A stretch of 62,560 nucleotides of DNA, the filler included. It is 11 parts of 11 records of this genome, joined end to end, with 100 filler letters (N's around TTAATTAATTAA, not from the genome) between each part and the next. Parts side by side here need not be neighbours in the genome. Positions count along the whole stretch, not along the records: positions 10,923 to 13,923 come from SRR7504441_15880; positions 14,024 to 18,794 come from SRR7504441_15881; positions 18,895 to 27,886 come from SRR7504441_15884; positions 27,987 to 32,392 come from SRR7504441_15885; positions 32,493 to 36,111 come from SRR7504441_15887; positions 36,212 to 40,987 come from SRR7504441_15889; positions 41,088 to 46,656 come from SRR7504441_15891; positions 46,757 to 58,486 come from SRR7504441_15896; 3 more parts are not named here. One strand, written 5' to 3'. The notes under the pieces were generated by a model that had not been told where the DNA came from, made no database searches, and worked only from the letters and a program-made list of their open reading frames with translations. Within the stretch, counting starts at the first letter, position 1. Each line of letters begins with the position of its first letter. Of this stretch, positions 12,391-60,212 are shown piece by piece. The translations under genes were made by a program, and so were the position numbers.

Positions 12391-13575
12391 TCAAGATTTG
12401 AGCTTCGCTTTCAATACGTCCGTGATGAACTGTATCGCTGCCTGTGTTTGCGCGCGGGTTTGTGGAGTATTCCACACGCTCAGTTTGGGATCGGTGAGCG
12501 GGGTGCACGGGTCGAACAGAATTCGGAGCGACCGGAGCGCCGTTTGGATCTCGCGGACCGACAGGGCACCCTTGCATAGCTCAGGAGTCAGCTTCCCAGA
12601 CACCTAATCCTCACCTTGAGCGCAAAGCTCAGCTCTGTCCAGTCACCTCGGCAGGCAGCGTGCCGTCAGCCACCCCGGCCGCCAGCAGCGGAGGCATTGG
12701 CACCAGGCAGCCTGCGCTTCCCGGCTCGGGCGGTCTCAGATCAGCAGCCGGCGCGCAGATGAACTGCTCGAGCGCCGCATACACTGCAGGGGCGTGCTCC
12801 TCATCCGGCATCTCGTGCCCGCCCGACCACTGGTGCGTCCCGACCAGCACACCCATGGCCACAAACCGCTCCTGTATCTGCCCGTACTGATCGACCGCGT
12901 CCTTGTCTTCTTTGCCGTAGCAGATCCACAGCCTCAGTCCGTCAACAGTGGGGAGATGATTATCCCACGGCCCCGCGTACTTGCCCCAGAGATCCTCCGA
13001 GCTGCCCGTCCGGTCCCCGCCCGGCCGGCCGGCTCGGTCACCCGAAGACGGCCGCCCATCGGAGCTGTTCCCGGACCTTCTGCGGGGCTTCGGCCCAAAC
13101 AGATAGCAGCAGGCAGACCAGCTCGCCCCCTGCTCGCAAGCCTGAGCCTGCGCGGGCGGGCGGTTACCCTGAGAGAACCCGAGCAGACCCTGGTACCCGC
13201 CCTCGGCCACGATGTGCCCCAGGGCCCGCGCGCGCGCGCGGTGTACTGGCTCCAAATCCTTGTCGGCGTGCCGCCAGTAGCCGAACAGCTCGAGATCGCC
13301 GGAGCGGCCGAGCTCCGCCAGCTCGGGCCCTTTCTGCCCGGCCGGCTGAGCCGGTTGCAGCCGGACGGGGACGCCTGTCCGCCTTGCTCGGCGAGCAGTT
13401 TGAAGTCGTCGCCCTCGAGCAGAACGTTGCCCTCAAGGACATCCAGCTGGTACCCGGGCAGCTGGGCCCGGGCCTGCTCGAGTGCGTAGTCGAACAGCAT
13501 GGTGCTGTTGCCATACCCGTGCAGGCAGAGCACCCTGGGCCGCCTCACAGCTCCGGAACGGCGAGTCACCGGCAT
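12391..13575 (-). CDS. FSH1/OVCA2-family serine hydrolase with C-terminal extension; spliced
   Basis: RVLCLHGYG, nucleophile elbow GLLGFSQG, GGHEMP. The frames join via mini-introns, the first (13334-13374) with a GC donor. Confidence 0.85.
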
Positions 13576-13630
13576 GCGCACGTTCTTGATCTCGCGGAGG
13601 CCGACGTTCGAGTTTGCTGAGGCTTGAGGG

Positions 13631-13923
13631 ATGGTCGACACTACGGCCCTGGAGGCTGGCCTGGACCGGATGCGGTCGCTGCTGGCGGCGGAGGCCCGGG
13701 TGTGCGAGGCGCAGCTGGCGGATTGCCAGCAGCTGTCCGCCGGTCTCCGCGGACTGGTGCTCCAGAACCGCCAGAACAGCGAGCTGCTGTCTGCCCACCG
13801 CCGGGAGCTCGCACTCGACGTGGCTGTTCCCGCTGGGTGCGCGCATGCTTGGCCGGATAGCCCAAGCCGAGCCCAAGCTGCAGATAAGGGCGGCGCATCT
13901 GAGCAGCAACACGTCCGAGACGA
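13631..13923 (+). CDS. Hypothetical coiled-coil protein, 3'-truncated
   Basis: ATG at 13631, helical sequence, divergent from the FSH1 gene. Confidence 0.5.
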
Positions 13924-14055
13924 NNNNNNNNNNNNNNNNNNNNNNNNNNNNNNNNNNNNNNNNNNNNTTAATTAATTAANNNNNNNNNNNNNNNNNNNNN
14001 NNNNNNNNNNNNNNNNNNNNNNNACATGCAGTAACATGGACAACTGCCATAGAAG

Positions 14056-16356
14056 CTAGTAGTCGTCATTGTCAGATTCTTCTTTGCTCGCCTTGATCGC
14101 CTTCTTTTTAGCCATCTCGGCGTTTTTCTTAGCTTTAGAGCTTTCACTGTTGAGTGCGTTTGGATCGGCCAGATAGTACTCTCCAGCAGCCTTCTGCTCC
14201 CTGTCTTTGGTAGATTCGGGCTTGTTGATTCGAGGCCTGTAATTGGAGGGATCTCGCCGAAAGGTGATATCAAGCTCTTGTAGGAAGGCGTTCATCCCTT
14301 GTATAATGCTGCTGGGGCTGTGAGCAGTACACTCTATTCCTGGCCTTCCAGTGTATACCACCACTCGGTCAAAGAGTGTCGATGCCATGAGGAAATCGTG
14401 CTCGATCACGAATGCAGACATCTGCCGGAAGGTAACAACCCATCGCTTGATGACTTTGGCAACATTAATACGCTGCTCGCAATCCAGTCCAGCGCTGGGT
14501 TCGTCCAGTAGATATAGCCGCGCCGGGGTTCCAAGACAGATGCAGATGGCCACCCTTTGCATCTCACCGCCAGAGAGGCTTCTCACAGGCAGGTCGTACA
14601 TCGGCTCAATCATAAGCGGCTTCATAACAAGCAGCCTGAAGTGCCGGTTCGCAAGCCCGCTCTGTATCGTCCGCTCGAGAAGCTCCTGCACTGTGCCTTG
14701 AAACCTGCGGTACCGCTTGGCATTGTGCTGGGTCTTGAAGCTGATCCCAAGGCCTGCCATCGAGCATGCCTCCTTGCGCAGCACCTTCTGCTCCTCCGCC
14801 GGTGCCCCCTCAGCAGGAGCAGCCGGCTTCTCGTCAAACGCGCCTGCAATCAACCGCAGGAAGGTGGTCTTGCCACAGCCATTCTCACCCAACAGCCCTA
14901 CGATCTCGCACTGTCGGAACTGACCCGGCTCAATATGCAGCGTGAAGCTGGACTCCTCGCTCTCGAGCACTTTAGTCATGCCATCGTAAGCGTACCGCTC
15001 GGCGCTCTCTGGATCGAGGTATCCGTCCGCCAGCATCTCATCAGTCATCGGGTCGTCCTCCAAGCTCACTCGGAAGCTGAGTGCGTTGGCCCTGAAGCGC
15101 ATATTCTCTGCTTCAAAATATCCTGCAAGATATCTGGCACGGCCAAATCAGGGCCCAAACAGACAGGGCGGAGCTCACTGGTTAATTCCGTTGTGAACAG
15201 TCATCCGTGATGTCACAACGCCATAAGCACCAGGGGCGCCAAACAAGCAGCATATGTAGTCTGCCATATAGTCCAGCAGGGCGAGGTCGTGCTCGACGCA
15301 GATCACGTACTTGCTGCTTGCCTTACCCGTGTCCCCGTCCCAGAAGTCGGCTTCAAGCAGTGACCGGATCACCCGCGCTGCGACCACCCTTTGCTTCACG
15401 TCCAGGAACGAGCTCGCTTCATCAAAGATGTACACATCGCAGTCCCTCACAACGGCAGCCGCAATCGCCAGCCGCTGCATCTCGCCCCCGCTAAGCGCGG
15501 CCATCTCTCGATCCATCAAATGGGTTAGGTCGAGCTTCTCTGTAACCCAGTCAATCACCTCCTGCGGCCGCTCGCTGTTCTTTTCAATCACCTGAGCCAC
15601 CTGCACCCGGCTCAGCCTGGCCAGAGCATTCGGCGCACTGTCCGCGAGTTCGATCCGGGCCGTTGGACGACGGTGTCCATCTGCGGCTTCATCACCGAGC
15701 TGGTCTCGTCAGTCACCAAGCTCGTGAAGTAATTCTGCATCCCACCGAAGCTCATCCGAACGAGCGCCAGCGGCCGTTGCCTGCAGGTCAGAGCCGCGGT
15801 AGTAGTGGATGATATCGGACCAATTGGCCGGGTCCGTTACGTTCCCGAGGTTCGGTTTGACCTTGGCCGCCAGCACTTTGAGCGCGGTGGACTGCCCGAG
15901 ATCCGTCGGGCAGCGCCCGCATCACGGCGCACCTTGCCGATGCCGTTGGTTCCCAGAAGCCCGAGCACGTGGCCAGGGCGTGGCTGGGGTAGTCCGTGCA
16001 GCTTAAACATGTTGAGCCCGTACTGGTGGGTGGTGTTGGTAGTCATGTTCGAGGGCACCTTGACGATTTTAACAGCGTCGTCCGGACACTTTGCGGCCCG
16101 GTTTAGGCAAGCGGCGCACGCCTGCACCGATCCGGCTGGCATACGCCCGGCGGCCGGCTGTCCTGACCTCCTCGAGGATGACGATCCGCTTCTGCTCCGG
16201 GCGGTAGGCGATGCACTCTTTGCCGCAGGCCCCGGCGATCCGCTTCAGGTACATGAAAGGCGGGCTCTTGGGCTTGCATTTGTCCTGATCCAGGATCACC
16301 ACCCGGCGCTCCTGAAGCTCGTCCGACGACTTGCGAGTCACCCCCTTCTTGCCCAT
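14056..16356 (-). CDS. ABCE1: ABCE1/RLI1-family ATPase, divergent Fe-S domain; 5 mini-introns
   Basis: [49 protein letters not shown] twice, [24 protein letters not shown]...[11 protein letters not shown]. Confidence 0.93.
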
Positions 16357-17119: not shown

Positions 17120-17478
17120 GTGGGATTACCTAGAACTTCCAGCCTGGCAGCCGAGCAACCATTCCAGCTTTCCACACGGCTTCAAGAGCCAGGTTGATGC
17201 AGTCGTGGTGAGTTTGCAGGCGTCCGGGCTATTGTGTGAAGCAATTCTAGACGTGACGATGCTGATTGGCAATAGATTTGACGCCTTGAACAGGCCTGCG
17301 ATCTAACATGTGCTTAATTAAGCGATCTGCGAACATTCTTTGTTCAACAAGTCCCACACACCCAGCTGATAAATGTCTATATGCAATTATACCCAAGTCC
17401 TTAAATGAGTACGATCGCGAGGTGCTTTCGATTGTCCCAAGCCCCACAGCTCCCAATGCCGTTAGAACTATCAGGCAA

Positions 17479-18935: not shown

Positions 18936-19537
18936 GACGCGGACGAGACTGCCCAGCTGGAGCCGCTGTTTGCGTCGATCGTATTCCTGTGCCACGGCAG
19001 CCTGGAGGACAAGCTAGACTGTGCGGGCCGGGGGTGCTTGGCTCAGCCCGGGGCAGTCTGCTGGGAGCTGTTCAGCCATGGGCGCGAGTCGATGGACCTG
19101 CACATAGTCAGCGACCTCATGCACTGCGTGCTCTGGTCGTCGGGCCCCGTCACCCAGTTTCCCGACGACCACAGGCGCCCCACCGGCCCGCTCCGGCTGA
19201 CTGGGCGGCTAGGAGCGTGGGCCGGCCGGGGCTTGGGGCGCTGCTCAAGATGGACTTGTCGAGAAAGGGCGTGGCGGAGGTGCCGTCCCAGCTCGGGTCA
19301 GGCCGGAGCGGTCGGGCAGCTGGCCAACGATCTCTTCGACAAAAGCACGCTGTCGTCCAATCGGATCAGCAAGAGGGATTTCTGGTGCAGCTGATGCGGC
19401 CGGTCTGCTGAGGGTGGGGCAGCAACTATTTCCAGCAGGAGCCGTTCCTCAAGGCGTGGCTAGCCTCGATGCAGCGGCGCGTGCAGTGGCATAGATGGCA
19501 GCGCAACCATGGCGCAGCTCACGTCGAGAAGGTATAG
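18936..19537 (+). CDS. C-terminal part of an NCS/calcineurin-B-like EF-hand-fold protein, 5'-truncated
   Basis: Spliced LFASIVFLCHGSLEDKLD.CWELF...NRISKRDFW resembles the recoverin/CBL pattern. The end is approximate. Confidence 0.5.
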
Positions 19538-19829: not shown

Positions 19830-21229
19830 ATGAAGTACAGCGAGGTGTACACGCCATTGCTGATCTGCTGCTATGCGATCATCGGGTTCCTGGCCATCTA
19901 CCAGCTCTACCTGATCCAGCACCACCGGTCCAAGTGCATCTCGTGGAACTCGGGCTTCCTCTTTTGCTGCGTTCCCTGGTGCGCGCTCAGGATCGCCTAC
20001 TGGCTGATGCCGGCCGACGAGTGCGACGTGGATGGGAGCCAGATGCTCCAGAGCGTGGTGCTCACCTTGCCGATCAATCTCGAGTTTGTGTGCTTTTACC
20101 TGATCATGGTATACATCATGAGCAAGGTACGCGAGGACGCCGACGAGCCCAGCTTCAAGCTCCGGGTCAAGTGGGTGTCGTGCGCCACCCACCTGAGCTA
20201 CCTGGCCTCAAACATGGTCTGCGTGGTCATGATGATCCGGCTTGGCACCCGCGTGCCCCAGGCCGGCAGCGACGACAGCGACTGCCTGCGCTCTGACCCC
20301 CAAAAGTGCCACGAGAACGGCGGGTGCTTCCAAGGCAACGAAACAGCCTCCAACATCCAGCAGGGGCTCTCGGCACTGGCCTTTTTCCTGCTGGCGCTCA
20401 GGTGCGGCTGAGTCCCTGGCTGTGAGCTCACTCGGCTGCAGCTTATTCTTTTATGGGGTTAAGCTGCACATTTCCCCGGATAGGAGCATAAGGCCCAACA
20501 CCGCCTCGATGGCCGACCCCGGCGAGTCGATGCCCCAGCTCAGGTGGCACGCGCACGAGTCTCGTTACGTCACAGAGGGGGTAACCGGCTGCTAGAGGCC
20601 CGATTGTGAGCCCGGCCTACAGGTGTGCATTGCGCTGCTGTTGGTCTTTGTGTCGCGAGCCGTCTTCGACGCGCTTCAGCTCAATACCTTCGCGCCAGCG
20701 CCGATCACGATTCCGCAGGACAAGGACCTGACTGAGTTTTGGATATTCTTTGTGTATATGGCATGGGAGGTCTTCCCTTGCAGCCTTATGTTGTTCTTTT
20801 TCGGGACAATCCAAGCGCAGCACTCCGCATCAAAGCCGGAGCACGGCCTGCGGGACTGGCGGAATTTCGCCACCCCGATGACCGAGGGGGTGGATGAGCA
20901 GCTGGTCGGTGCAATAGAAGTGGACCGGCCTAACCCCAACTGGCCGCTGCCCCCCAACGTGCACGAGTACGCAGTCAGCTCCAGTGACCGCTCAGCACAC
21001 GGTCCGCTGGTGCCCAAACCGCCGATGGTCGGATCCAAGGCAACCCCTCGTAGTAATTGCCTGGCTGACTTTCGGACAGATTGGGCTGATGGAGGATGAC
21101 GGTAGATACGACTCACCTAGCGATAACCAGCCGCTACATATGCCTAGCCTTAACACGACATCCTCAGGATATTACCCTGGGGGTGGACGGGCTGATCTGT
21201 ACGCTAAGATCCACGGGAATAAAATGTGA
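19830..21229 (+). CDS. Multi-pass membrane protein, GPR137/TOM1(THH1)-like
   Basis: About 7 hydrophobic segments after splicing: FLFCCVPWCALRIAYW, TLPINLEFVCFYL, FFYGVKL, VFVSRAVFD, YMAWEVFP. C-terminal YDSP motif. Confidence 0.7.
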
Positions 21230-21255
21230 TGTATACACAAACTGATAAATTAGCT

Positions 21256-27199: not shown

Positions 27200-27886
27200 A
27201 TGCCAGAGGATCTGTCAAAGCTCGGGTGAACACCGCAGTCTGCAGACTGAGTGATTCGGCGCTGGGTATAGGTACATGAAGCTGAAGAGCAAACTTCTAT
27301 CGCTAGGCACACCCAACTCGCCGCCGGTGTCTATGATGAGCTGCTGTGTGCGGCAGGAATGCCTCTCGAGCTGGTGAGGTCGTCCCCAGGTTGCTGCACT
27401 CTGAGCGCCAGTTTAGCTTGGCGCACGGGATCACATTCTGTGTGGTTTTGGGCAGGCAAGCCTACGTTGCTCCACCGCTATGAGCAATGGAGCAATTCGA
27501 ACCCGCTGCAGCCGCCGAAGCCGGAGGGGGGCTGTGAGGTACCAGCAGGAGCTGTTGACAGCAACGATCAAGGCCCGCAGACCCAGCAGGCTCGACTGAA
27601 CCAGGACATTCAACGGGTGGCACAGGAGAGAAAGAACAACACTCAACAATGCTCACAGCCCACCCAAACTGAACCCCTCCCTTCCACGGAGCAGCGGTCT
27701 GAGGTGCTTCGGCCCTCTGCCACTGGTTCTGAGTGCCAATTGGTCGGTGCAGCCGCCAGCATCGACCGGCAACCCCGTGGTGGATGCCGCAGCTCTCAAG
27801 TGCACTGAGATTGTGGCTCGCTGCAGCCAGAGCGGTGCTTAGCACTCACAGCCTCACTGAGTCCTCAATGAGCCTGACCGCATGGT
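27200..27886 (+). CDS. Hypothetical protein with LEM/HeH-like N-terminus, 3'-truncated
   Basis: Spliced MPEDLSKLGYMKLKSKLLSLGMPLELVRSSPGKPTLLHRYEQW, followed by Q/P-rich sequence. The model needs a GC donor at 27307. Confidence 0.4.
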
Positions 27887-28146: not shown

Positions 28147-31100
28147 ATGGAGGGTTCGGTCGCGGAGCAAGCCAGCCGCGACAGCCGGCCGGCCGAGCCA
28201 GGGCTGACCGACAAACTTTGTCTGCACCGGCCCGCCGGGGGGGAGGAGGGCTGGCTGGAGCACCTGGCCGAGGGCTGGTACCGGATGCAGATCAACCAAG
28301 CCCGGCCGATCGCCAACTGGCGGCCGAACAAGGACCGGCTTAAGACCCTGCACGCGGTGCTCTGCCTCTGCCTGAACATCGGGACCGACCCGCCCGACTC
28401 GGGCCGGAGCTCGCCCTGCTCCCGGGTGCAATGCTGGACCGACCCGTTCGCCATGGAGAGCCACAAGGCGCTAGAGCAGATCGGAAAAAGCCTGCAGACC
28501 CAGTGCGGGTCCGGTTAGTGGCTGAGGCTGACTGCTGGCAGGTACGAGCGCTGGCAGAGCAAAGCGGAGTTCAAGCTCTGCCTCGACCCGACTCTCGAGA
28601 CGATCAAACACATTGCGCTGCTCACTCGGCGGAAGGCCAAGCAGGACCGGGTGCTCTTCCACTATAACGGACACGGCGTCCCCCGGCCTACCCACAACGG
28701 CGAGATCTGGGTGTTCAATAAGAACTTCACCCAGTACATCCCGCTCTCGATGTCCGAGCTCCAGTCGTGGCTCGGGAGCCCGGTGCTGTACGTGTTGGAG
28801 TGCTCGGCGGCTGGGAACGTGATCGAGCACATGCTCAAGCACCAGCCCGAGCAGACCGCCAACAGCTGCATCGTGCTTGGGGCGGCGGCAGCCGACACGC
28901 AGCTCCCGAATCACCTGGAGCTGCCAGCTGACCTGTTCACCTCTTGCCTGTCGACTCCGATCCAGATGGGTGCCCGGAGGCTAGTCACGTTCTAAACGCG
29001 TGGCAGGGCTTAAGTGGTATTGCTGGCAGCACAAGGTGATGATGATTGAGCCTGAGCTGATCGACAACCTGCCCGGGTGCCCAATCCCAATCGCAGGCCC
29101 GATCGCGCGGCAGCTGCTTCTCGGACCGGAAGACCCCGCTGGGCGAGCTCAACTGGATCTTTACTGCGGTGACTGACACGATCGCCTGGAACGTGCTGGA
29201 GTTCAAGGTTTGGCGGGCCACGTGCTCAGCCAGCTGGTTCAGGTGTTCCACGAGCTCTTCCGGCAGGACTTGCTGCTCGCCTCGCTCTTCCGGAACTTCC
29301 TGCTGGCCGAACGGGTGTTTAGCTCGCTCGGGGCCCCGCTTTGCTCCTGGCCGAGGCTGCCCCCAACCGCGCACCACCCAATGTGGGAGGCCTGGGATCG
29401 GGCTGTCGACATCTGCCTCTCCCGGCTGGCCGACATCAAGAACGGGCGCGGCCCGGCTGCTCCATCGGCTGGGCTGCAGATCCCATCCTCTAACTCGTAC
29501 TTCTCGGAGCAGGTCCGTGCCTGTATCATCGCTCAGCTAATCGCGGGCAGCTGTCGGCGTTTGAGGTTTGGCTTGAGTACGGCTCAGAGCACAAGGCCCC
29601 CCCGGAACAGCTCCCGGTGGTGCTTCAGGTGCCGCTCGCGCTGCATGCAGCATGCGGCGGGCAGGTGCTGCTGTCGCAGGTGCACAGGGCTCGGGCGCTC
29701 TACCTGCTGGCACGCTTCCTCGACATGGGCTCGTTTGCAGTCAACCTGGCGCTCTCGGTTGGGATCTTCCCGTACGTGCTCAAGCTACTCCCGTCTACCC
29801 CGGCGCCCGAGCTGCGGCACGTGCTCGTGTTCATCTGGGCCAAGATCATCGCTCTCGATCAGTCGTGCCAGAACGACCTAGTCCGCTCAAAGCAGCACGT
29901 CTTCTTCATAGAGATCCTCAAATCGGCCGCCCCGCCTGCCTACTGCGCGATGGCCGCGTTTGTGCTGGCGATGGTGTGCAACGGGCATGCGGCCGGCCAG
30001 AGCGCCTGCTACGGCGACGGGCTGGTCGAGGCGTGTGTGCCGTGGTTCAGCAGCACCGAGCCGCTCCTCCGGCAGTGGATGTGCCTGGCGCTCTCCAAGC
30101 TTTGGCAGGACAACGACACCATAAGGATCGCTGTCTCTTCGACCGACATTCACACGCACTTTCAGCCTTTGCTCTCCGACCACTCGCCACAGGTGCCAGT
30201 CTTGTTGTCAGCAAACTCCAGCCCCAGCCCAGGTGCGGACTGCAGCCGTACACGCGCTGGGGACGCTGCTGGCGCTCCCCGGGGACCACGAGAGCTTTTT
30301 TTGCGTGAAACTGATGGTGAAAGGCTGTGCGGTGATTCCTCCTAATGCAGTGCATCAGGTGGGGAACTGGCTTCTCTCGCTCGCTTATGATGGCTGCACT
30401 GCCGTTCGCCGCGAGGTGGCCCGACTAGACTGCCATGCCTGACTAACTGCAGGTGGTGGTGGCACTGTCCGGCTTCCTCGCAGTGCGCTCTGTTGAGTTC
30501 AGCGCTGCTGTTTCGCGGGTACAACTTCACTTGATGTTTAATGCTTATTGATTACTGAACACAGGTGCAGCTGGAGGAGGATCACAGGGCGCGTCAGCCA
30601 GAGAGCGCGGACGAGAACTCGCCCCGCCCTTCGGCCGACGCTGAAGAGGGTCTGTTCCGGCGGGCATGGTATAACTGATGCTGGCAGTTGCTGACTGCGT
30701 TCAGGTACGTGCTGCTCGCGCTCTCGATGGACCCTCTGCCGGAGATCGCCGCAGTGGCCAACGTGCTGGTCCAGCTCACACTTGCCGCCACCCAGAACGG
30801 ACTACTGCTAGCGCCACAGTCGGCCGGGGCAGCAGGCCCACAGCAGCCGCCAGCCGCCAGCTCGATTAAAAAGTCGACTTCAATGTGCAACGTAGCGCGG
30901 GCCGGCTCACCTTTGCACGAGGCAATGCAGAGCGGTGGGTTCACCCGGGCGGCCAGTATGCTGGACTTTGGGGCGAGCAGCGGGGCACCGGCGAGCAGTG
31001 AATTCAAGATATCAGAGAGCGACTTCTTTGAATGGTGCCGGCAGCAGTGGGTGCGGACCCTGCTCGAGCACAACATCACGGCCGACGAGCAGGAGGAGTG

Positions 31101-32235
31101 GAGCAACAAGAAGACACTCAAGCGGGAGATGCAGATGAACCACTCAGCCGCGGCTGAGTCATTCGCGGTCGAGAAGAAGCCAAAGAAGTTCTCGTCTCAG
31201 ATCGCGATGTTTGACAACACGTGCCGCTGGAGCTCTTTGCTACTGTTTGACGCTAAGGAGCCGTGCCTATATGTGGCCGATTCCAAGGAATTTATTTCCA
31301 CATGGGACTTGCCCTCGGGGCTGAGGACTAATCAGTTCCAGACCCCGACAGGCGGGAGGGTCACCACTCTGCTCTCGCTCAATCAATTCATCCCGGGCAC
31401 GCTGCTCGCTGGGACCGACGACGGCGTGGTGTCGGTCTTCCAGAACGCGCACTCGGCCTCCGAGCAGCAGCTGCAGACAGCTTGGACGGCGGTCCCCGAT
31501 CTGATTTCAATGGGCGCGAGAGGTCCGGGCCTGGTCTGCGACTGGCAGCAGGAGGAGGGGATCTTGCTCGCGTCGGGGAGTGTGAATAAAGTCAAGGTGT
31601 GGGACGTGGTCAAGCAGATGTGCGTGCACGACATGCCGACTAACACCGACTACCCAGTCACCTGCATGGCCTCCACCCAGCCCCGCAACTGCCTCTGGGC
31701 CGGATGCGGCGACGGCGTGATTCGGATCTTTGACTGCCGCCAGCCTGACCAGCTGTCTGCGCTCCCCACCCTGCACGGGCACAGTGGGCCGGTAGTGTGC
31801 ATCCACTTCCCACTCAGCAATCAGAACCTGGCCATATCGGGCGCCCGGCCTGCTGGCAGTCACGATGCCTCGCTCGCCTGCTTCTGGGACCTGCGCCAGC
31901 TGAGCGAGCCGGTCAGCCCCATAGTATATCTAGCACACACAATAGGACCGTATGTGAGCGGTGGTGGACAGGTGAGCCAGTTTCAGGCCTCGGGCTCCGG
32001 CTCGCTCACGGCCATGTCGTCCCACAACTACGCCTCGGTGCTCGCGTGCGGCTTCCAAGAGCAGATGATTAAGATCTTTGACCATCAAGGCAAGGAGTTG
32101 AATAGAATCAAGTACCACGAGGGGTACGTCGGCCAGCGGATCGGGCCGGTCTCCTGCCTAGCGTTCCATCCTTGTTTACCTTATTTAGCGGTAGGAGCGG
32201 AAGACTCTTACATAGCTTTGTTCAAAAGGAAATGA
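28147..32235 (+). CDS. RPTOR: Regulatory-associated protein of TOR (Raptor/KOG1); ~12 mini-introns
   Basis: [97 protein letters not shown]-terminal WD40s ending [14 protein letters not shown]. Confidence 0.97.
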
Positions 32236-41431: not shown

Positions 41432-42749
41432 ATGGCGGCCGCGCCCGGGCCGGAGGAGGGGACCACCTCGTACCGGACCAAGGGGAAGAAGGTGGTGAGC
41501 GGCCAGCTGCTCCGGGGCAACGTCCGGAACATCTGCGGCTTCCGCTCCTCGGCATCGATCCCGGCCAAATTCGAGACGGCGCGCCCGTCGGCCGGGAGCC
41601 CCGGCCAGCCGGGGTGGCAGGTGATCCACGACGGGAACAAGGAGCGGAACGCGTTCAACTGCCGGATCTACCGGTTTGACGACAACCAGGTCCCGGTCCG
41701 GCCGGGGCGCGAAACCAAGGTTGGACAGGACGAGCTACCAGGAGTGGGCAAGTACTCGCTGCACCGGTCGGCGGGGTCCGAGTTTGAGCGGAGGGACACC
41801 TCGGTCTCCAAGCGGGTGCGGCCAGCGGTGGGCCGGCGCTGACGCAGTTTAGGGGCTGGGGCCGATCTGTTCCAAGGACTTTTCGAACAAATCGTTCACC
41901 TGGGCGGGGATCAAGGCGGCCGTCCCGGGGCCTGGGGCGTACGAGAACACCCAAGCGCTCGAGAAGAGCTGGAACCAGCGACAGGATAAGTGTCTGTTCG
42001 CTGGCCGGTCCGGCAACAGCTTCTACTCATCCGATCCGACGCCGGGCCCTGCAGATTACGATGTGAGTGCGGCTCGGTGAGCGCCGAGCTGACTGGGCGG
42101 CAGCCGCACGCTGGGCTCGGGCGGAACAAAGGGCCTGGGCAGGCCTCGTTCAACTCTCGGGCGATCCGTCTCAAGGAGAAGCGCGCCAAAGGCCCGGCGC
42201 CTGGTGCTTATGAGGTCGGGAGGAAACCATTTGACAAAGCCGAGTACGGGAACATACCGTCGGCCGCGTTCAGTTCGGCCTGCGGGCGGGACGTGGTGCG
42301 CCGTTATGTTTATGATATATGCTGAGGGCGTGCAGATGGCTGAGAAGCTGGCAGTGAAGGCTGCCAAGTTGCCGGGTCCGAGCAGTTACTCAGACACGCA
42401 AGGGCACTTGCTCGGGCTGCGCGGGGCGGGCGGGCACATGTTCACCGGGAAGATCCAACGGGCCCCGTTTGCGCTGGCCGACCCCGATGTGATTGAGGCC
42501 AGGCAACAGGCCAAACTGGAGGGCACGCCGGGACCCGGGAGCTACTTTGAGCATGACGACCCGGCATCGGCCAACCCCAAGGCTAAGAGCCGGAGGACCA
42601 AGGGCTCGGCGTCGTTCAAGTCCAACACAGCCCGGAGCAGCTACATGAGCGTCAAGGCCACGCCCGGCCCGACGCATTATAAGACGCCGGCGATCGGGAA
42701 GCCGCTGACAAAGTCGTTCCATCTAAACACGACCGGGACCTGGGTCTGA
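41432..42749 (+). CDS. STPG1: Sperm-tail PG-rich repeat (SHIPPO) protein, STPG1-like; ciliary
   Basis: SIPAKFET...ERNAFN..RF N-terminus. Repeats LPGVGKY, PGPGAY, PAPGAY, LPGPSSY, TPGPGSY, TPGPTHY. Ends SFHLNTTGTWV. Confidence 0.75.
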
Positions 42750-43526: not shown

Positions 43527-45905
43527 ATGCAGGGCGGGGAGCTGGTGGGCAGGAGCTTGATGACGACTGACCATGGCGGGCGGCAGCGACATCTGGAGGC
43601 GGCGGCGGGGGTGGGCGGGCTGCTGCGCACCAGCCTGGGCCCGGCCGGCCGGCGCAAGCTGCTGGTGCCTGGCTGGCCGGCGGTTGGGCAGCTGGAAGTC
43701 CAGGTGTCGCCCACTGGCGAGCTTAGCGTAACCAAGGACGGGCACACGCTGATGCAGCAGCTCCAGCTGCAGGTAGCTGCCGGCCCAGCCAATCTGACCG
43801 CCGGCAGGCCCATCCGATCGGAAGGCTGCTGGTAGGGCTTGCCGAGGCGGTGCAAGGCCAGTGCGGCGACGGCACCACCACCGCGGTGGTACTGGCAGGC
43901 TGCCCCCGCCCAGGTCCCGACGGTGACGATGGCGGGCAGGCGCGTTATGCGAGGCGGCCGCCCGGATGATTGCGCAAGGGGTGCACCGGTGGGGCAGCTG
44001 GGCTGTGGCGAGGCAGCCGACGGGCAGGTTGGCCGTGATCCGTGGCTTCTGCAACGGACTTGACCTGGCCAGCCGGCAGCCAGCGGAGCGGGCACGGCTC
44101 ACTGTCAGGGCAGGGCGATGGCAGCCACCGCCACTGATCGAGCCTCGCCTGAGGACGCCATCACGGTGCAGGGCCTCGCAGCGGTGTGAGTCGTCACAGG
44201 TGTCGCTCGCCGGCGGGGACGAGCCGCGCTGGCGGGAGTATGCTGAGGTGCCCTCGTGTCGGCCTGCTCAACATACCCGGCACAGTTGTGTTGGGAGGCA
44301 CAGCAGGCAGCCAGAGAGCAGGGCAGGCCTAGCGTCCGCCGGTGAGTGCCAGTGGCGGCTGCAGGGCAAGCCTAGGCCAGCTGGGAGGGCGCGGGCGACC
44401 TTCGGCTGCAGCTGGTGCGCGGGGCAGTTTGGAGCACCGGATGTCTGCTGTCGGAGGCCCCTGCGCAGGTGCGGAGCAAGGGGTGTCGGGCGACTGTGTG
44501 GCAGGACACTCGGTTGGTGGCTCTCTCTTGCTCCTTGGAAGCGTCGCTGCCCAAGACCAAGCTGACTGTACGGCCGGGGCCGGGCGCGGAGTCAGGGCTC
44601 GTTAGGTGAGCCTGAACCCTGACGAGCGCGGACCGATGGAGAGGTTTGTGCTGGAGGATAGGGAGCGAATTGTATCAACAGTGCTTGATCTGGAGCCAGG
44701 ACTGGTGCTCTGCCAGTTCGGCGCGGACCCGATGGTGTGCGATGTAACGGACTCGGCGTTAACGGATTGGGCAGGTGGCGGACTGCCTCAGGCAGGCCGG
44801 AGTGCTGCTGATACCTTGGGTGCTCTCTGGCTGAGGTGGCCAGAGTGTGGCGCAGGTGTCGGGAAACGACCTGGAGAGGGCGGCCCTGGCGGCTGGCGCC
44901 CCGATTGTGCCGCGGCTGGAGCTGCTGCAGGCATGCGGCCGGGCTATGTCTAGTATATGTCGGGCAGGAGAGCAGTCTAAGCCAGCCATGTTCGGTTCGT
45001 CTGGAGCGGCTAGATGGTGCCGCCAACGGCCGGCTGAGCGCTCAGTCGGGCGGCAGCCCGCACCACCGGGGTGTTGCTCGAGAGGCCCAGCTCGCCGGTA
45101 TGCCGAGAGCGCAGTGCGTGCCAGCTGTGGCAGGTGGTTGTCCTGCTGGTCCGTGGCGGGATAGAGAGCGCGGCTGAGGGGCTGCGGACTGCGCTCGGCG
45201 ATGGGGTGCGCGGGTAGCGCGCGGGGGGGGTGAGCCTGTGGGGCAGATCGGGTGCGCGGCAAGTCTGATTGAGGTTGGGGGTGTGCTGGAGTGGTGTGGA
45301 GGCTGGGCAGAATCAGAGGATGGTGCCCGGAGGAGGATGCGCTGAGACGGCCGGCGCGGCCGGACTGCTGGCGGCGGCAGACCGGACCAGCGGGGTGGGC
45401 TGGTGGTTCGTGCCCCGGTGAGAGGGGTTAGGTCGAGGCGACTGTGCTGCGAGGCTTTGCGAACGCGTTGCTCACGCTGCCGCTGACTCTGGCAGAGAAT
45501 GCAGGCCGAGTGGGCGACGAGGTCGGTTTATAAATATAAATATTTGAGCCCGGGCAGGTGGCGGAGGAACTAGTCAAGCTGCACTCTGAGCAAGCCGACC
45601 AACGGTGCGATTGAGAGTGTATCGAGGCGAGTCGGGGCAGATGTGGGCTTGGGGTGGACTGCAGCGGGGAGATAACAGACATGGCGGCCGCGGGGGTGAC
45701 GGGCGCTGGTGGCTGGCACGGACGGTTTGTGGGCAGGTGTTTGACTCGCTCGGAGCCAAGATGCGTGTGGTCCGATGCTTGGGCCGACGCAGTGACCTGA
45801 TCGAGTTGTTATCAGGTGACTGCAGCCACCGAACTGGCCAATGCGATCGTCAAGCTGCACCCCGAGGTCATCGTCGTACCCAAGCTGGACGTGTGGGCCC
45901 CGTAG
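43527..45905 (+). CDS. Highly divergent group II chaperonin (CCT/TCP-1-like), intron-rich
   Basis: LLRTSLGPAGRRKLL, VTKDGHTL, HPIGRLLV, GDGTTTAVVLAGAL, MVPGGGCAE, GFANALLTLPLTLAENAG, VFDSLGAK...ATELANAIVKL. Confidence 0.8.
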
Positions 45906-46274: not shown

Positions 46275-46656
46275 ATCACTTCTCGGCCTCCTCGCCGACC
46301 AGCCGCGCCTCGCCCCTGGGCCGGCCGGCTGACTCCTGAGGGCTGGGGCCGGGCACCAGTTTTCGTCGAATAGGCAGAAGAGGACCAAGAGCGTGAAGAG
46401 AGACATCGTGGCTACCGACCAGAATATCCAGTAATCTCCGGCCGCTGCCCGCCGCGGTGAGTTTCAGGCCGCCACGGGCCCACGGGCAGGCAGGCGAGCA
46501 GGCAGGCGAGCAGGCGGGCCGGCGGTGGGAGGAAGGGGGTGCGGACCGATGGTGCAGAAGATGAGCACCAGTAGTAAGAACGTAAGGAACGAACCGCAGA
46601 ACGACGCCATGCCCGCTGAGTCGTCAGCCCTCAGGTAAGCCCGCGTGCCAACGGAA
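46275..46656 (-). CDS. Fragment of a membrane protein (two hydrophobic segments), 5'-truncated
   Basis: SFCGSFLTFLLLVLIFCTI|AAGDYWIFWSVATMSLFTLLVLFCLFD after splicing. The 3' end is ambiguous. Confidence 0.4.
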
Positions 46657-46925: not shown

Positions 46926-46973
46926 TGCACCGCAATGACAAGCATTCGGTATTAAATAAGATTTCGTAAACCC

Positions 46974-47255: not shown

Positions 47256-50200
47256 CTAGGAGGTGGACACGCCAATTAGAGCTTTGGTGACTGGGTGCAC
47301 TGCATGTGCCACCTTGTGCCATATACTCATTGCATGAGGCAAGCTAAGTAGCATTAGGTGTACACTGGTGAGGCTCGTCTGGAGAACCAACCCCTCGAGT
47401 GCTTCAAGCCACTCCGGTGTGGGCCCCTCGTCCCTAACCTTTACGCTCATCCACCGCGCCAGCAGCTCCAAGTCAGTCGACCGAGAGAACCGGAATGCCT
47501 TCTCGAGCATCTTGGCGGTGCCTGCAGGCAAGACCTCCTCTTGCAGTAATAAATCCAGAAACACGAGCACCTGCCCTAAAGTCACCGGCAGCTGGGTAGC
47601 AGGGCACCTGTCTTCTAGTCCATCTGCTGACCGGGCGCGGGGCAGCCAGCTGCGCTTGTTTGAGCTCCCCAGGAGCAGCCTCGACGCTCCAAGCCTTGAG
47701 CAACTGGAGAATAGGCTGCAGCCAGGCCGTACTCGAGCTCAAGCCGCTCTGCGGAGGCAGAGGCAGGAGGCCCTTGCGGGTGAGCCATTTATTAAAGTCC
47801 AAACCGGCCTTGGGCTGGGTGAGCGGTGGGAATACTTCGAACATGAAGGCAAAGAAGTCGTTGGTGGTCACGCTCTGGAACATGAACGTTCTGCAGAACC
47901 GCGCCAGCGCTATGTTGAAGCCCTCAGGAGAGCAGCCGGCTACTCTTTGCATCTCTGATAACAACAAGGCTCCTTTCTCTGATGTTACCTCCTCACTAAA
48001 ACCAGAGGGAGTCTGGATGCGTGCGCCCTTTGAGACCAGCTGCATCGCCTCCGAGCAATGCTTGGACTCAGCTGCTAGTTGGACGGCTGTCCTCGCTATC
48101 TGGCTCGCCATCTGCCCAGTAGATACGCCCCAGATATGTGACATGACTTGCCGGCCAGCATACCTGGCCAGATTTCAGCAAGGCAAGCGATACAGGCCCA
48201 CCTGCAGAGGGCATTGCATAGCCAGGCGTCGTGCCAGGTAGCAGGTGTGACTTGGTGCCCGAACCACAGCGTGGCCACCGAGTAGAGCAGCGCCTCAGTG
48301 TCAGGGCCCGGCTCTAGGTTTCCCGACGCAGACACTGTCGAGAACGTGAAGTCCTGGGTAGCACACTGCTGTACAATCTCGAGGGAAATCAATGACAAAC
48401 ACGGAAACCCTCGCGTTATCATCGGAAAACCAGCCGGGGCCACCTGCATAGCCAACTTTCAGGGCCGAGCGCCTGTGGGCACGCACCACAATCTCGTGTG
48501 ATCCCCATGAGTGCTCCCCATAAAGGTTTGAGAAAGCAGCCAGCACCTGTCCTACAATGTGGGCCAGGGGTGCACACGAGCGTACCTCATCGAGCTTGCC
48601 ATCAAAGCACTGCAATGCAGCATCGATGCAGCCAGGGGGGCTCCAAACTCTCGAGGTATTGCCCACGACTGCCGACTCGAGCGACCCAGCGATCAGCATC
48701 ACAGCGTGCGATGCCACAGGCGACGCCATCTCAAACGTGTACTTGGAGCCAGCCAGCGTATGCTCTGTCGACTCGAGCGTTCCACTCATCAGAGCCATCA
48801 TGCCCTCCGGCACTGTGACAGTCGCCTTGAATGGAGTCTTAACAGACGGCGTGTCCTGGCAGGGGAAGAGCGCCCTGGCCATGCATGGTTCCCCTAGTGC
48901 GAGCAAGTAAGGGTACGAGTCGCCGGGCTCCCCCTGCACCAACGGTCAGCTCCCACGCTGCCAGTCTGGCTCACCTGCTCCAGCCACCTGACCGCCGCCC
49001 CGCTCATCACTCGATACTCCAGCTCCAGGGCCAGAAGCGTCTCCCGGTGGTCCTCAGGAAGGGCTATGTGGAGCACAGAGCCGTGGCCGGCCTCCGGCTT
49101 GCCGCTCGTCAGCTCAAACGCGAGATCCATGGCCACCCGCCCGGAATAGAGCTTGACCTGATCTATGTGCAGGCCGTGGACATCCAGCAGCACCCGATCA
49201 CACCGGGAGGTCTGCTTCTGCATCTCTAGCCGGGCCACCCCGCTGATTGATTGGGCGTCAAAGTCGATCTCCCACTCGAGTTCAATCATCAGCGAGGCAA
49301 CCTCCTTGGTGTTAGCCCCCGAAGTGGGGTCTGTTACTGAGCAGAGCGCCGGTTCGCCCTGGGCTGCCCGCACTGTCCCACCCGGGGTAGTTGGCAGCAC
49401 CTGTGGAGAGCCCTGGCCGCACTGGTCAGGTTGCAGGGCGGGCCGGAGCCTGCCTGGGATGGGCTGGCTGCAAACTTGCCAGGAGAGGGGCTCTGCAGGC
49501 CTGAAGTGTCTAGTCGAGGCGGGCGTGCAGCCTTGGGCTCTTTCATGGCCCGGAGTTCAGTCAGGAATTGCTCCTGAATGGGCGACGGAGGCGGCGACTT
49601 GGAGATTGTGGTTACCCGCGAGTCGCCCGCCGCTGCCTGCAGCCAGTGTCACGAGGGCTGTCAGCCAGGGGTGGACCTCGAGAGCAGTCTGAATTGTCTG
49701 TCCTCGCATCGCCCGAACTGGAGATGCGTCTGCCCTAACTGTTGGCGAGGCAGGGCTCTGGGCCATGGCTTCAATGTCGTGCGACGTCGGGATTTGAATA
49801 GGGGAGGGCTGGACCCTCGTCCGCCTATCGCTGGCTGCCGCCATGTTCTTAAAGCACGGCCGGAAGCCATTTGCAGCGTCACGCGAGAGCACTGCACCGC
49901 ACACAGTCCGCATCCTGGCGTAGAGCTTGGGCAGCGAGCCGCGGATATTGAGCCACTTGTCGAACGAAATGCGCCGCTGCTGATTGCCAGGCAATACACT
50001 GCTCAATGTCTCATCAGCCGCCTGAGACCCGGGCTCAGCCTGCGTGAATCGACGCCGCCGAACGCACCTCTTGCGCCAGCATCGCAATCTGGTCGAGTGA
50101 GCCTTGGAACTGGCGAGCCAGCTGGTGAATGTGTGCGGTGTCCACTTCGTACTCAGCCTCGAGGTGCGACCACTCCAGCTGGAGCACATTGAGCGAGAGC

Positions 50201-51610
50201 TGGCTCGAGAACCTGGCGCCCGCTCGGAGCCGCCCGCGGGAGCCCGCGCCGTATAAAGTGCTGGAAGAAGGACGAGATCTCCGTCTCCGACAGCGAGTTC
50301 TGGTCATTCAGATCCGACAAGAAGAATAAATACCTGTCCCAGCAGCCGTCAGTCCCCCGGCCGGCGGCTGGCCACCTCGCAAATTCGACCAGCCCTCCGG
50401 AGGCCATTCGGGCGATGCCGCTCCCGACCGCCCGCAGGTCTAGCTCGCCATGCTGCTCGGTGTCAAAGAAGGCGAACGAACGCTCAAACAGCGGCGAGTG
50501 CAGGTCGAGTCCGGCTGTAAGAGACCCGTCTGCAATCCACTCGCGCACGTGCTCCGCCGAGTACTCGAAGGCCTCCACGGAGAAGAAAGCGTGCGCAAAG
50601 CCCTCGAGAAGGAAGAGCTTGAACTCGTTCGGCTGCATCTTTGAGCCCTCCGTGTGCACTGTGCCAGACCCCCGTCAGCCCAGCGCGCCTGCGGCCGCAC
50701 CTAGGAACATCTCAACTATCTGGCCGGCCTCGGCGGCTGTGATCGCCAGCTCGGCCGATTCGATCACGTCTACCCCCCCGCTCTTGGCGCCCCGGGCCTG
50801 GCCCGCACCTGCAGACGCCCTGCTGAGCGTCGGCCGAATAGTCCTGTCGTCCCAGTAGACCAGACCGTCGCACAGTGCGAGCATGGTGCTGTACATGCCC
50901 GGCAGCAGCTCCCGCCCACCCAGCCAGGCCCGGTAGCCCACCCGCGGCTCGCCGCTCGGTCCGGGTTCGCACTCCATCTCTGCCAGCATCGATTGCGCCT
51001 CCTCCGTGGCCCTATCGGGTGCTGCGTCCAGCTGCCGCTCCAGCTCGTCCAGGTGTGCCTCTATCGCCCCGCGCTCCACCCCAGCCGCCAGCAGCGCCGG
51101 ACGCTCCAGCCTTCCTATGTTTAAAGCCAACTGCAGGTGCAGCGCCGAGGCCTCGCAGTAATAGTTGTCGAGCTCAGCCGCCCCGATCGAGCCGCAGCCC
51201 GTCAGATCGGTCACGAAGAACAGGAAGCGGGCCACTGTCCCAAAGGTTCCGACGGCCACCTTCTCAATCCCGTCGAGGACGTGCTTGAGCCGCAGCGCCC
51301 CGGCGGCCTCGGCGTCGAAGTACTCGAAGGTCCGGAGGAGCACCGAATTCTGTTGGGAGATCCCGCGGGCCAGCGCCCCGTCGGCGATCCAGCGGCGCAC
51401 CTGCTGGCACGAGCTGCTAAACGCCTCGTGGCTGAACAGCGAGTACGCGAACCCCTCGAGCAGGAAGCCACCGAACTGATCAGGGCCCATCGATCCGGAG
51501 GGCGCGTGGGCCAGGAACATGTCGACGATCCGGCCAGCCTGCTCCTGGGTCAGCTCGTGCTCCTCCAGCCGCTCCGCGTCCACCATGCCGTCCGCCCCGT
51601 GTTCTGTCAT
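47256..51610 (-). CDS. Tandem NCS/CBL-like EF-hand domains fused to a catalytically inactive LTA4H-like M1 aminopeptidase
   Basis: Two homologous N-terminal domains (FGGFLLEGFAYSLFSHEAF / FKLFLLEGFAHAFFSVEAF) and an S/P-rich linker. M1 part: DPTSGAN, IDFD...ISG, ARALFPCQDTPSVK, EKGALLL. HEXXH is replaced by YSVAT. Frames join through introns 50213-50249, 49637-49676 and 49401-49453. Confidence 0.75.
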
Positions 51611-57730: not shown

Positions 57731-57831
57731 GCCTCACGATCACAGTAACGGACGTGGTCAACGGCATTTTGGCAAGGCCTATTGACCTATTCCTGATCTC
57801 CGAGCAGCACTCGCACGGTGCGACGGGTCGG

Positions 57832-58419
57832 ATGAGCTCGCGGCCCAAGCGGGCGGAGAGCGGTCAGCCTGGGTGAGGCTAAGAGGGGATGAACGCGGAC
57901 GTGGCCGACCAAGTGCTGCAACGGCGGGCCAACTTCATCCGCTCGGCGTTCGGCTTCCTCGGTGCGGGGCGGCTGGGCTGAGCTCACCGCGGTGCAGACA
58001 TCGACTCGGGTGGTACGCTGACCAAAGACGAGCTAGCTACCACATGCGCAGTGATAGGTGCGCTCGGTGTGGGTGGGGGGGTGCCCGACCGGGCCGATTG
58101 GCAGGCCTGAAACTCACCGATGAGGAGGTGGAGGACATCATCCACGAGTATGACGGCGATGCCTCCGGTGAGTGCTCGCACTCGCAAGGCGCTGTGGCTG
58201 AGCCCGCGGTGATGCCCAGGCAATTTAGACATAGATGAATTCGTTCAGCTGGTACTCTCCAGAACTAAGGACCCGAACGAGGAAATGCGTGAGGCGTGGT
58301 CTTTTTTCGACGTCGACCCTGGGCAGATGTTACCAGGACGCAGAGCACGGCCAGGGAGCCAAGCCGACCCGCGACCCCCATGTCAATCTGGTGGTGATCT
58401 GTCACCTGAATTTTCTTAA
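57832..58419 (+). CDS. Calmodulin/centrin-like EF-hand protein
   Basis: Spliced IRSAFGFLDIDSGGTLTKDEL...GLKLTDEEVEDIIHEYDGDASGNLDIDEFVQL...EEMREAWSFFDVD. Confidence 0.8.
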
Positions 58420-58586
58420 GCTGAATTTTGGTCTCGTCACACTCTCCTCACTGCATTTGATGTCTCAATTTTCTGAGCGGTGTCCTNNNNNNNNNNNNNN
58501 NNNNNNNNNNNNNNNNNNNNNNNNNNNNNNTTAATTAATTAANNNNNNNNNNNNNNNNNNNNNNNNNNNNNNNNNNNNNNNNNNNN

Positions 58587-60212
58587 TGCACGCGCTTGAA
58601 GGCCTCTTTAAAGTGGTGAGCTTTGAACGAGAGCTCCCGTTGGATCATCGCGCCGTCAGCCCCGTCGGGCCCCACAACCTGCCCTCCAGCTCAGCTCACG
58701 CGCCGGACACTGTCTGACCGTGATTTGGTCGTCGAAATGCAGCTTGCCCGCCCGGGGCACGTCCCCGCCGGGGCCGGGCCGCGGCTTTTGCGCAACTGTC
58801 ACCAACACAGGCTAGCGTGGTTGGACCGGCCGACTACACACCCGCTACAGGCTTGCTGGCAACTGATCGCATGCTGTAAAGCGAGTTGGAGCACACCATC
58901 GTGTCCGGCTTGTACCCGCCGAATATATAGAGCACTTGATTGCCAGTCTCCACAGTCAAATACGCCCGGGCGCCAATGTCGGGGCCCTGTCGACACTCAG
59001 CACAGCCCGCAGCAGCCGCCACCTCCACATTCAGTGCACCCCAATTCCCACTACTGCTGTACACAAGCGCCGTCGGGGTCTGGGCCGACGTGGTCACGCC
59101 GAATGGATTGAGCCCGCCTGCTCCCGGAGTGAGCCCATCCCAGTACCACACTAGCACCGAAGATGACAATCTCGCCTCCCAGCACGGACGCGGCGTGCGC
59201 AAACCGCGGGGGGAGCCCTGGGACGGGCGAGGAGGCGATCTGCGACCAGGCCCCGGTGGATATGTCGAATGCGTGCACATAGTCGAACGACGGACCGTAG
59301 ATCCGGTCCCCGTTCGTGCCACCGGTCACAACAAGCCTCTGCTCCACCAGCGCAGCCGAGTGGAACGCCCGCGGCGACGGCAGTTCGCCTGCCCGTGGCT
59401 CACCCCCCTGAGCGGTGGCAGTCTGGGCACCTGTGACCCCGACGACTGGGAGCCACTTGAGCTTTGAGGCATCGAACACGAAAAGATCGTTGAACGAAGC
59501 AGTTCTGGTGGTGCCCCCGAACAAGAGCATCCGGTGATTGTCGAGTGAAGTGAGCGTGTGCCCCCGGCGCGCGCACGGCATCGAGCCCTTGATGGTGTCC
59601 CACTGGTGACCAGCCTCCTCAGAGTACTGGAGGATGATGGTGTCGTCAAAGCACTGCGCTCCATTGGCCCCACCAAACAACACCACCGCGCTGCCGCCAC
59701 TCGCGTTCCTGATACAGGACGCCGCGTGGTGCGACCGGCCCTCGAGTACCCTGCACCGGCACACGGGCTGCCTCAGGCAGGGTCCGACCCGACCCCGGCC
59801 AGACAACGCACAGCGCTCGCCGACAGCACCACCAGTGTGTCGCGACCCAACTACCGGGCTGACTCGCTAGGCGGGCCGCACCGGTTCCCGCTGTTGTCGA
59901 ACGGGACTTGTTGCCAGCTGTTCTTGTTTACGCTGTACGACCATATGCTGCGCCCCACCGGTTCAGCCCCACGCGGGCAGCCGGCTCACTCGTTGTAGTA
60001 CACGCGCTGCACGTGCGGGTTCTTGCCGCTGCCAGCCGCGCCCAGCTCAGCGCGCCTGCAAGCGAGCGGGGGGGGTGCCTGTCTCCGAAGGTCACCAGAA
60101 GGTGGTCGTTCACCATGGTGAGGCAATGCCCGCACCGGGGCGCCGGGCCCACCCCCGCGGTCAGCCGCTGGAATCCAACGGCCCCCTGGCTCGGGGCGAT
60201 CGGGTCGGCCAT
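58587..60212 (-). CDS. Kelch-repeat protein, 3'-truncated
   Basis: PAPRCGH, YYNDIWSY, GRSHHAA..VVLFGG, ARRGHTL..LLFGG..FNDLFVFD, SPRAFHSA, PRFAHAA, LYIFGG. Confidence 0.88.

Follow-up and report, generated by a model that had tools for sequence, protein, structure and literature searches.

The stretch of DNA analysed here, which we refer to as the window, is 62,560 bases long and consists of 11 contigs of 3–12 kb each rather than a single locus; the contigs were joined artificially by ten identical 100-nt spacers (Table 1), and therefore gene order across the spacers is meaningless. The G+C content per 2 kb of the window is 49–70%, mostly ∼60%, and across the contigs we find intron-dense genes with introns of ∼40 nt; because this intron style is common to the contigs, we treated all 11 as one organism. 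The genes include an ABCE-like ABC ATPase gene, an NDK-like gene, a group II chaperonin (CCT-like) gene and a Raptor gene, and the subject of this analysis is those introns in such genes that begin with GC instead of GT. A preliminary description of the window had proposed about ten short GC-AG introns; we find that three of these are certain and two or three more are likely, fewer than had been claimed.

GC at the start and AG at the end are indeed found in all ten proposed intervals, read on the strands assigned to them, and the intervals are 37–53 nt long. The donors originally listed (GCAACG, GCGCGG, GCACCC, GCGTCC, GCGAGT, GCTGCC, GCAGGC and GCGCCC) are present; in addition, the donor at 27307 is GCACAC and that at 41579 is GCGCGC. 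The exon ends that precede the donors, which had been given as always AG or CG, are CAG at seven of the ten sites, ACG at two and TAG at one. Three of the intervals (50213–50249, for which this had been noted, 60029–60078 and 19175–19212) contain no GT at all.

Restoring a frame is by itself no proof of an intron in a GC-rich genome, and at each candidate site there are 198–402 frame-compatible X..AG options within ∼90 nt, including 5–21 that are GT-AG. These numbers lend weight to an alternative in which the introns are mis-delimited, such that splicing in fact takes place at GT donors close by and the GC bounds arose only because frames were fitted by eye. Indeed, there is a plausible GT alternative (GTCGGG, 35704–35749) at the 35700 site, and the 49401 candidate has a rival GTGCGG donor of the consensus type 31 nt further in, with GT-AG alternatives of 50–92 nt. 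Similarly, the gene finder that we wrote, which scores codon usage together with splice signals and the length of introns and allows all 16 donor dinucleotides equally, called a false GC intron in the Raptor gene (30660–30704), where homology gives GT at 30669. Frame rescue and gene finding are thus indecisive, and the case for GC donors therefore rests on homology.

We placed introns by homology with our own spliced aligner, a dynamic programming method that requires AG at the 3′ end and leaves the donor entirely free. With this alignment to homologues, the GC introns proposed for the ABCE-like, NDK-like and chaperonin genes were all confirmed. These three GC-AG introns are certain with respect to their placement at the exact base, and the gap-free match of the spliced products to homologues implies that they would be removed from the mRNA.

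In the ABCE-like gene, the bounds of the GC intron were chosen exactly in 10 of 10 homologue alignments, and the homologues P0003 and P0005 are gap-free across the junction. The same aligner found GT-AG introns of this gene at 15892–15932 and 15134–15178 in 10 of 10 alignments and at 16122–16167 in 5 of 10, with mostly no intron call in the other five. When the gene finder was restricted to GT donors, it was forced to delete conserved ABCE residues at 15781–15820. Thus, every ABCE homologue alignment tried chose the GC form, and the model limited to GT had to sacrifice conserved protein sequence, both of which argue against mis-delimitation at this site.

For the NDK-like gene, we used 99 homologues of at most 520 residues, taken from 150 that were returned by a search of representative sequences. 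The product spliced at the GC donor outscores that of the best GT alternative, 35704–35749, for 84 of the 99 homologues, ties for 11 and loses for 4; the GT form needs a gap of 3–4 residues, and the conserved VEY.G/VEW.G motif is gap-free only in the GC form. The spliced aligner picked the GC intron with three of three homologues. Some of the NDK-like homologues are derived from transcripts (EukProt, MMETSP), P0225 and P0264 among them.

In the chaperonin gene, the upstream exon aligns with thermosome and CCT chains through its last residue. The references were 41 archaeal thermosome genes, which are intron-free, and the GC form was the best of six variants against all 41. Its mean score was 131, compared to 120 and 117 for forms shifted by 3 nt, 95 and 89 for two GT forms and 96 for retention of the segment, and the spliced aligner picked the GC form in 10 of 10 cases. 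A homologue search with the N-terminal 80-residue piece of the chaperonin found nothing, and a PDB search with its downstream exon gave no relevant match. Given the outcome in the three genes, we consider mis-delimitation an improbable account of the GC donors.

The confirmed GC introns resemble the other introns of the window. The verified set consists of 25 introns in five genes that were placed by homology or by RNA, although three of the five genes were picked for carrying candidates. The Raptor gene provides an unbiased comparison: by spliced alignment to the Telonema subtile protein P0121, 11 of its 12 introns were drawn directly as GT-AG, and the twelfth, drawn as CA..AG, is sequence-equivalent to a GT-AG intron at 30193–30232. 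The RNA evidence is a 216-nt metatranscriptome contig from run X3, which matches contig 9 with no mismatches and is spliced over segments of 41 and 102 nt (CT..AC on the + strand); since the RNA contig joins across both introns, mini-introns are truly spliced in this organism. Left out of the verified count were a 27-nt GC..AG gap (28171–28197) in the poorly aligned N-terminus of Raptor, an ABCE-like intron near 15601–15660 (intron D) with an ambiguous boundary that is compatible with GT at 15601–15638, an NDK-like intron near 35558–35607, a chaperonin boundary at 43770/43773–43807, and ∼14 further chaperonin introns for which the thermosomes are too distant for placement.

The verified introns have a median length of 40 nt and a range of 35–102 nt, with 24 of the 25 within 35–60 nt; mini-introns of ∼35–46 nt are very abundant in the genome. 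The confirmed GC introns, at 46, 37 and 41 nt, match the GT introns in length and in their CAG acceptor. G precedes the donor (position −1) in 23 of the 25, and the exon ends in AG at all three confirmed GC introns, although three is a small sample from which to derive a donor consensus. The 22 verified GT donors have a weak, GTGCGS-like consensus (+3 G in 15 of the 22, +4 C in 12, +5 G in 12 and +6 C in 11). A motif scan found a YTRAY-like branch match in 11 of the 25, and a CTGA-type motif is thus common without being universal; among the confirmed GC introns, the scan found a match in 35700–35736 (A 11 nt from the 3′ end) and none in 15735–15780 or 43899–43939. A strong GCTGAS branch motif seen in an early seed set was partly a product of our own filter and is matched by just those 11 of the 25, and we do not retain it.

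Among the verified introns 22 are GT-AG and 3 are GC-AG, a ratio that is biased by the candidate-driven choice of genes. For an estimate over the window, we took the 3 confirmed GC introns and ∼3–4 likely ones over two denominators, the 69 GT introns in gene models scoring at least 15 with donors free and the 98 introns of the GT-only model. By this small sample, GC donors make up roughly 3–8% of the introns in the window. This is above the GC-AG share of 0.3–2% given for plants and metazoans, is similar to the 4% cited for Cyanidioschyzon, and is below the ∼14–17% of the pelagophytes Aureococcus anophagefferens and Pelagomonas calceolata, which has been attributed to high genomic G+C (bioRxiv 10.1101/2024.10.30.620910). 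It is likewise below that of Emiliania huxleyi, in which 56% of 241 manually mapped junctions are GC-AG, again linked to high genomic G+C (PMC4028052).

The source organism appears to lie near Telonema. The longest Raptor exon (30727–32232) has 67% identity by BLASTP, or 71% in alignment A1, to a Telonema subtile protein (EP00656), and the next-best matches have ∼37%; from this one gene on one contig, the closest sequenced relative would be a telonemid, Telonema subtile. In a run search, parts of the sequence were present in marine and aquatic metagenomes only, and the sample that gave the best-matching DNA run is also the source of two metatranscriptomes. Homologue searches found no telonemid match for the ABCE-like or NDK-like genes, and scans of metagenomes found only one 40%-identical Raptor, no close relative, with the Raptor alignment and no relative with the exon of the duplicated-domain gene. 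An Rfam scan of the window gave 0 RNA families, so there are no rRNA or snRNA genes in it, and a tRNA scan of the window found none.

We consider it likely that the GC introns are ordinary U2-type spliceosomal introns with a GC donor, in the nuclear genome of a GC-rich (∼60%) marine flagellate near Telonema subtile. G+C mutational pressure would convert some GT donors into GC, and the spliceosome would tolerate C at +2 since this position would contribute little to recognition; recognition would be carried by the exon-end AG, by positions +3 to +5 and by the short, fixed intron length. GC would be tolerated as 5′ recognition would already be loose and the introns short and uniform, as in intron definition, and the outcome would be GC donors at a few percent of introns, in the range estimated for the window. 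The weak GT donor consensus and the tight lengths of the verified introns are consistent with relaxed or length-defined recognition. A relaxed recognition of the 5′ splice site is plausible because the GT donors are themselves weak.

Classical U2-type GC-AG introns have a strong AG/GCAAGT consensus (the slash marks the exon–intron boundary), and the donors here had been described as lacking it. This holds for GCTGCC; in contrast, CAG/GCAACG and AAG/GCGAGT are closer to the classical donor than are the GTGCGS donors of this organism. A is present at +4 in two of the three confirmed GC donors (GCAACG and GCGAGT, which also have a purine at +3), compared to 4 of the 22 GT donors. The pattern is suggestive of the compensation usual for GC donors, although three cases are too few to be conclusive. 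A bolder version, in which length and 3′ signals would be the main definition of the ∼40-nt introns in telonemid-like flagellates, and a changed U1/U6 pairing register would relax the reading of the 5′ splice site so far that +2 is effectively Y, seems to us doubtful; if true, it would be an independent case, in a TSAR lineage, of the GT-to-GC donor drift seen in haptophytes and pelagophytes.

Several observations weigh against the reading of these introns as U2-type with a GC donor. First, in the unbiased subset none of 14 introns is GC-AG (12 of 12 in Raptor and both in the RNA-proven gene are GT-AG). Second, with donors free the gene finder chose 136 introns with GT 69 times, GC 10, CT 9 and CC 7, and GC is not above its dinucleotide frequency; the gain in score per unit of dinucleotide frequency from adding GC to a GT-only model is about that from adding CC or CA, and of the 12 Raptor introns the gene finder called 5 wrongly with non-GT donors, including the false GC intron described above. 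A strict filter (frameshifting length, strong branch and acceptor, and both exons at least 30 nt) leaves 25 introns, with GT 17, GC 3 and others 5, which we judge marginal. Similarly, a signal-only scan for intron-like segments, which is confounded by shifted donors around real 3′ ends, showed no enrichment of GC donors (4 of 66, compared to 17 for GT, at a high threshold). Third, no RNA contig was found over any GC candidate, the sole RNA contig lying elsewhere on contig 9; neither 41579 nor 43899 was covered when runs X1, X2, X3 and X4 were aligned on contig 9, and for 46757–56756 no matching RNA run was listed. Fourth, for four of the ten candidates (49401, 19175, 27307 and 41579) the support is frame rescue alone. 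Fifth, the assignment to Telonemia comes from one gene on 1 of 11 contigs, and contamination of the reference transcriptome is possible. Finally, the C at +2 of the confirmed sites is without independent cover by reads of a DNA run.

This last point bears on an alternative that explains the C at +2 by an error of assembly or sequencing, or by a rare allele that entered the metagenome consensus, with the actual splicing being GT-AG. The contigs are short metagenome assemblies, and 7 of 256 positions differ in a related population, from run X2. However, the same T-to-C change would be needed at exactly +2 in three independent confirmed sites and several probable ones, the surrounding exons are intact, and the homologue alignments have no frameshift; we therefore regard such errors as highly improbable. 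Least probable of all is that the GC introns form a separate class (U12-type, euglenid-like nonconventional or mobile introner copies), for although the confirmed donors look heterogeneous, the U12-type donor motif [AG]TATCC begins 0 of the 25 verified introns and 0 of the 10 candidate donors, an all-against-all blastn-short comparison of the 25 gave a single 11-nt match and no extended similarity of the introner kind, and the lengths, exon-end G and CAG acceptors are the same as in the GT set.

Taken as U2-type introns with a GC donor, they can be compared to three known systems. The organism shares with pelagophytes and Emiliania huxleyi a high-G+C nuclear genome, retention of the AG acceptor, GC donors above the 0.3–2% level, and genes that are mis-modelled by GT-only prediction. 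It differs in its lower GC-donor share, in introns of ∼40 nt compared to pelagophyte averages of 103–177 bp, and in being a heterotrophic flagellate close to Telonema whereas the others are algae. With classical animal and plant GC-AG introns, the introns here share GC at +1/+2, the 3′ AG and G at −1, and two of the three confirmed donors keep the classical purine at +3 and A at +4; unlike them, the confirmed GCTGCC and the probable or plausible GCGCGG, GCACCC and GCGTCC are almost without match to GCAAGT. The GC frequency here is also several-fold above the animal and plant level; in humans, ∼1% of introns are GC-AG (PMC3167603).

The third comparison is to Ostreococcus lucimarinus, in which introns outside chromosome 2 have the atypical donor GTGCGTG and the branch GACTGACG (Irimia and Roy 2008, PMC2483917). 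These introns lie where the genome is poor in introns, and their signals are strong, with 4.8 bits at the 5′ site; the term ‘GC-AG’ does not occur in the text of that paper. The organism here shares with O. lucimarinus a GTGCG-type donor consensus, a GC-rich genome and CTGAC-type branch motifs in many introns, but its genes are intron-dense (12 in Raptor), the consensus at its donors is weak, and just 11 of the 25 verified introns have a CTRAY-like motif.

Table 1. Introns, intron candidates and spacers in the window. Positions count along the window, and a slash marks the exon–intron boundary.
Feature	Position (strand)	Length and sequence	Gene or context
Confirmed GC-AG intron	15735..15780 (-)	46 nt, phase 0; CAG/GCAACG...ATGCAG/A	ABCE-like ABC ATPase gene
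Confirmed GC-AG intron	35700..35736 (+)	37 nt, phase 0; AAG/GCGAGT...CTGCAG/G	NDK-like gene
Confirmed GC-AG intron	43899..43939 (+)	41 nt, phase 1; CAG/GCTGCC...GGGCAG/G	Group II chaperonin (CCT-like) gene
Probable GC-AG intron	50213..50249 (-)	37 nt; ACG/GCGCGG...CGCCAG/G	Duplicated-domain gene; own first domain copy
Probable GC-AG intron	60029..60078 (-)	50 nt; CAG/GCACCC...CTGGCAG/C	Kelch-repeat gene, before 13-codon exon
Plausible GC-AG intron	13334..13374 (-)	41 nt; CAG/GCGTCC...CGGGCAG/A	FSH1-type serine hydrolase gene
Candidate	49401..49453 (-)	53 nt	Upstream of M1 peptidase domain, in unconserved N-terminal extension
Candidate	19175..19212 (+)	38 nt; GGCTGACT branch-like motif, TAG acceptor	Chosen by gene finder
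Unsupported candidate	27307..27356 (+)	50 nt	Upstream frame open for just 17 codons
Doubtful candidate	41579..41620 (+)	42 nt, in frame, stop-free	PGPG..Y repeat-rich gene
Additional GC-AG candidate	21040..21079 (+)	40 nt; AAG/GCAACC...GGCTGACT...GGACAG/A	Absent from the preliminary description
Raptor gene stretch	28503..31971 (+)	12 homology-fixed GT-AG introns, 35–60 nt	Contig 6; unbiased comparison set
RNA-proven GT-AG mini-intron	46316..46356 (-)	41 nt; GTGCCC...GCCCAG	Small membrane-protein gene; RNA contig joins 46314 to 46356
RNA-proven GT-AG intron	46445..46546 (-)	102 nt	Small membrane-protein gene; RNA contig joins 46444 to 46547
Ten identical spacers	6708-6807, 10823-10922, 13924-14023, 18795-18894, 27887-27986	100 nt each (44 N, TTAATTAATTAA, 44 N)	
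Ten identical spacers, rest	32393-32492, 36112-36211, 40988-41087, 46657-46756, 58487-58586	100 nt each (44 N, TTAATTAATTAA, 44 N)	

The remaining candidates are of graded strength (Table 1). The gap-free alignment of the duplicated-domain gene to its own first domain copy, as previously proposed, is indeed obtained when 50213–50249 is removed, and this form has the best score (259), although its margin over six alternatives is small (255, 253, 250, 250, 243 and 232). The 60029–60078 intron was chosen by the gene finder with donors free and passes the strict filter; splicing keeps the first kelch blade VTFGD beside a YYND.W motif resembling later blades, and the support is frame and intron anatomy, as the loop is variable and the junction is not pinned. 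The 13334–13374 intron was likewise chosen by the gene finder and is supported by frame and intron anatomy, with its junction in a variable loop; it is flanked by Pfam FSH1 matches (profile positions 4–54 upstream and 65–111 downstream), and PDB searches with both FSH1 flanks gave no relevant match.

Pfam searches with single exons that flank candidates were mostly uninformative. The flanks of 19175–19212 gave no match above the cut-off, with a sub-threshold SOCS match (E 0.034) on the downstream flank only. For 27307–27356 there is no significant downstream Pfam match, and no gene model scoring at least 15 covers it. The 41579–41620 candidate, which had been noted as in frame, is in frame and also stop-free; by eye we saw no CTGA-type branch motif in it, and it may be coding sequence. 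Its gene (41432–42746, +), of which two exons examined gave no Pfam match, resembles by eye the sperm-tail PG-rich repeat proteins, and this likeness would suggest a flagellated organism.

Two further segments were not among the ten. The 21040–21079 segment contains stops, shifts the frame into an open exon and passes the strict filter, which makes it a candidate by frame and signals; it joins the gene of a multi-pass membrane protein to a 49-codon C-terminal exon. A 44-nt segment at 53076–53119 (+), which the gene finder chose, has a GA donor (GAG/GAGGCA); its branch-like motif and its acceptor are very strong, and it may be either a GA-AG intron or a misplaced call.

Some of the genes have features of interest in themselves. 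The ABCE-like gene (14059–16356, −) seems, as read by eye, to lack several cysteines of the N-terminal iron-sulfur domain. Its best database relatives, with 54–57% identity, have no Fer4 or RLI Pfam domains, and one cluster of these relatives at 90% identity includes a protein of Prasinoderma coloniale; the gene may belong to a distinct family of ABCE paralogues. The small RNA-proven gene (46250–46608, −) encodes a membrane-protein-like product of ∼63 residues, and its 102-nt intron contains a CTGCCTGCTCGC-type simple repeat that is matched by many short DNA contigs of run X1.

MGH1-like/GH63-type glycoside hydrolase domains are found in three long open reading frames, 7044–8840 (−), 17290–18792 (+) and 54539–57172 (+), which have no evident introns though the genome is otherwise intron-dense; the last of these lies on the same contig as intron-containing genes, and the three may have arisen by expansion of a gene family or by acquisition. 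An alpha-mannosidase-like gene (23240–27063, −) has Alpha-mann_mid in a 796-codon exon and an HSHQD-type N-terminal part upstream, and the introns of its models are unreliable because its codon usage scored poorly in the gene finder. A run of 26 G (18895–18920) opens contig 5 and is probably an artefact of the assembly end.

Elevated use of GC-AG introns in GC-rich protist genomes is already published; what is new here is their presence in a lineage close to Telonema, combined with introns of ∼40 nt at high density. A 2026 preprint describes single-cell genomes as the first genomic data for Telonemia, and the word ‘splice’ is absent from its text (10.64898/2026.04.17.719054). A literature search directed at genomes and introns of Telonema and Telonemia, with supplementary tables outside its scope, found no description of telonemid intron architecture. 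The main use of the finding is in correct gene models and annotation of such genomes, while for splicing specialists its interest is moderate to low. Gene predictors applied to metagenome bins or single-cell genomes of GC-rich protists should allow GC donors and introns of 35–46 nt; otherwise, conserved genes will be frameshifted or trimmed, as the ABCE residues were by the GT-only model. With the GC-AG introns described here, a heterotrophic lineage, apparently near Telonema, joins the trend of GC-AG use rising with genomic G+C.

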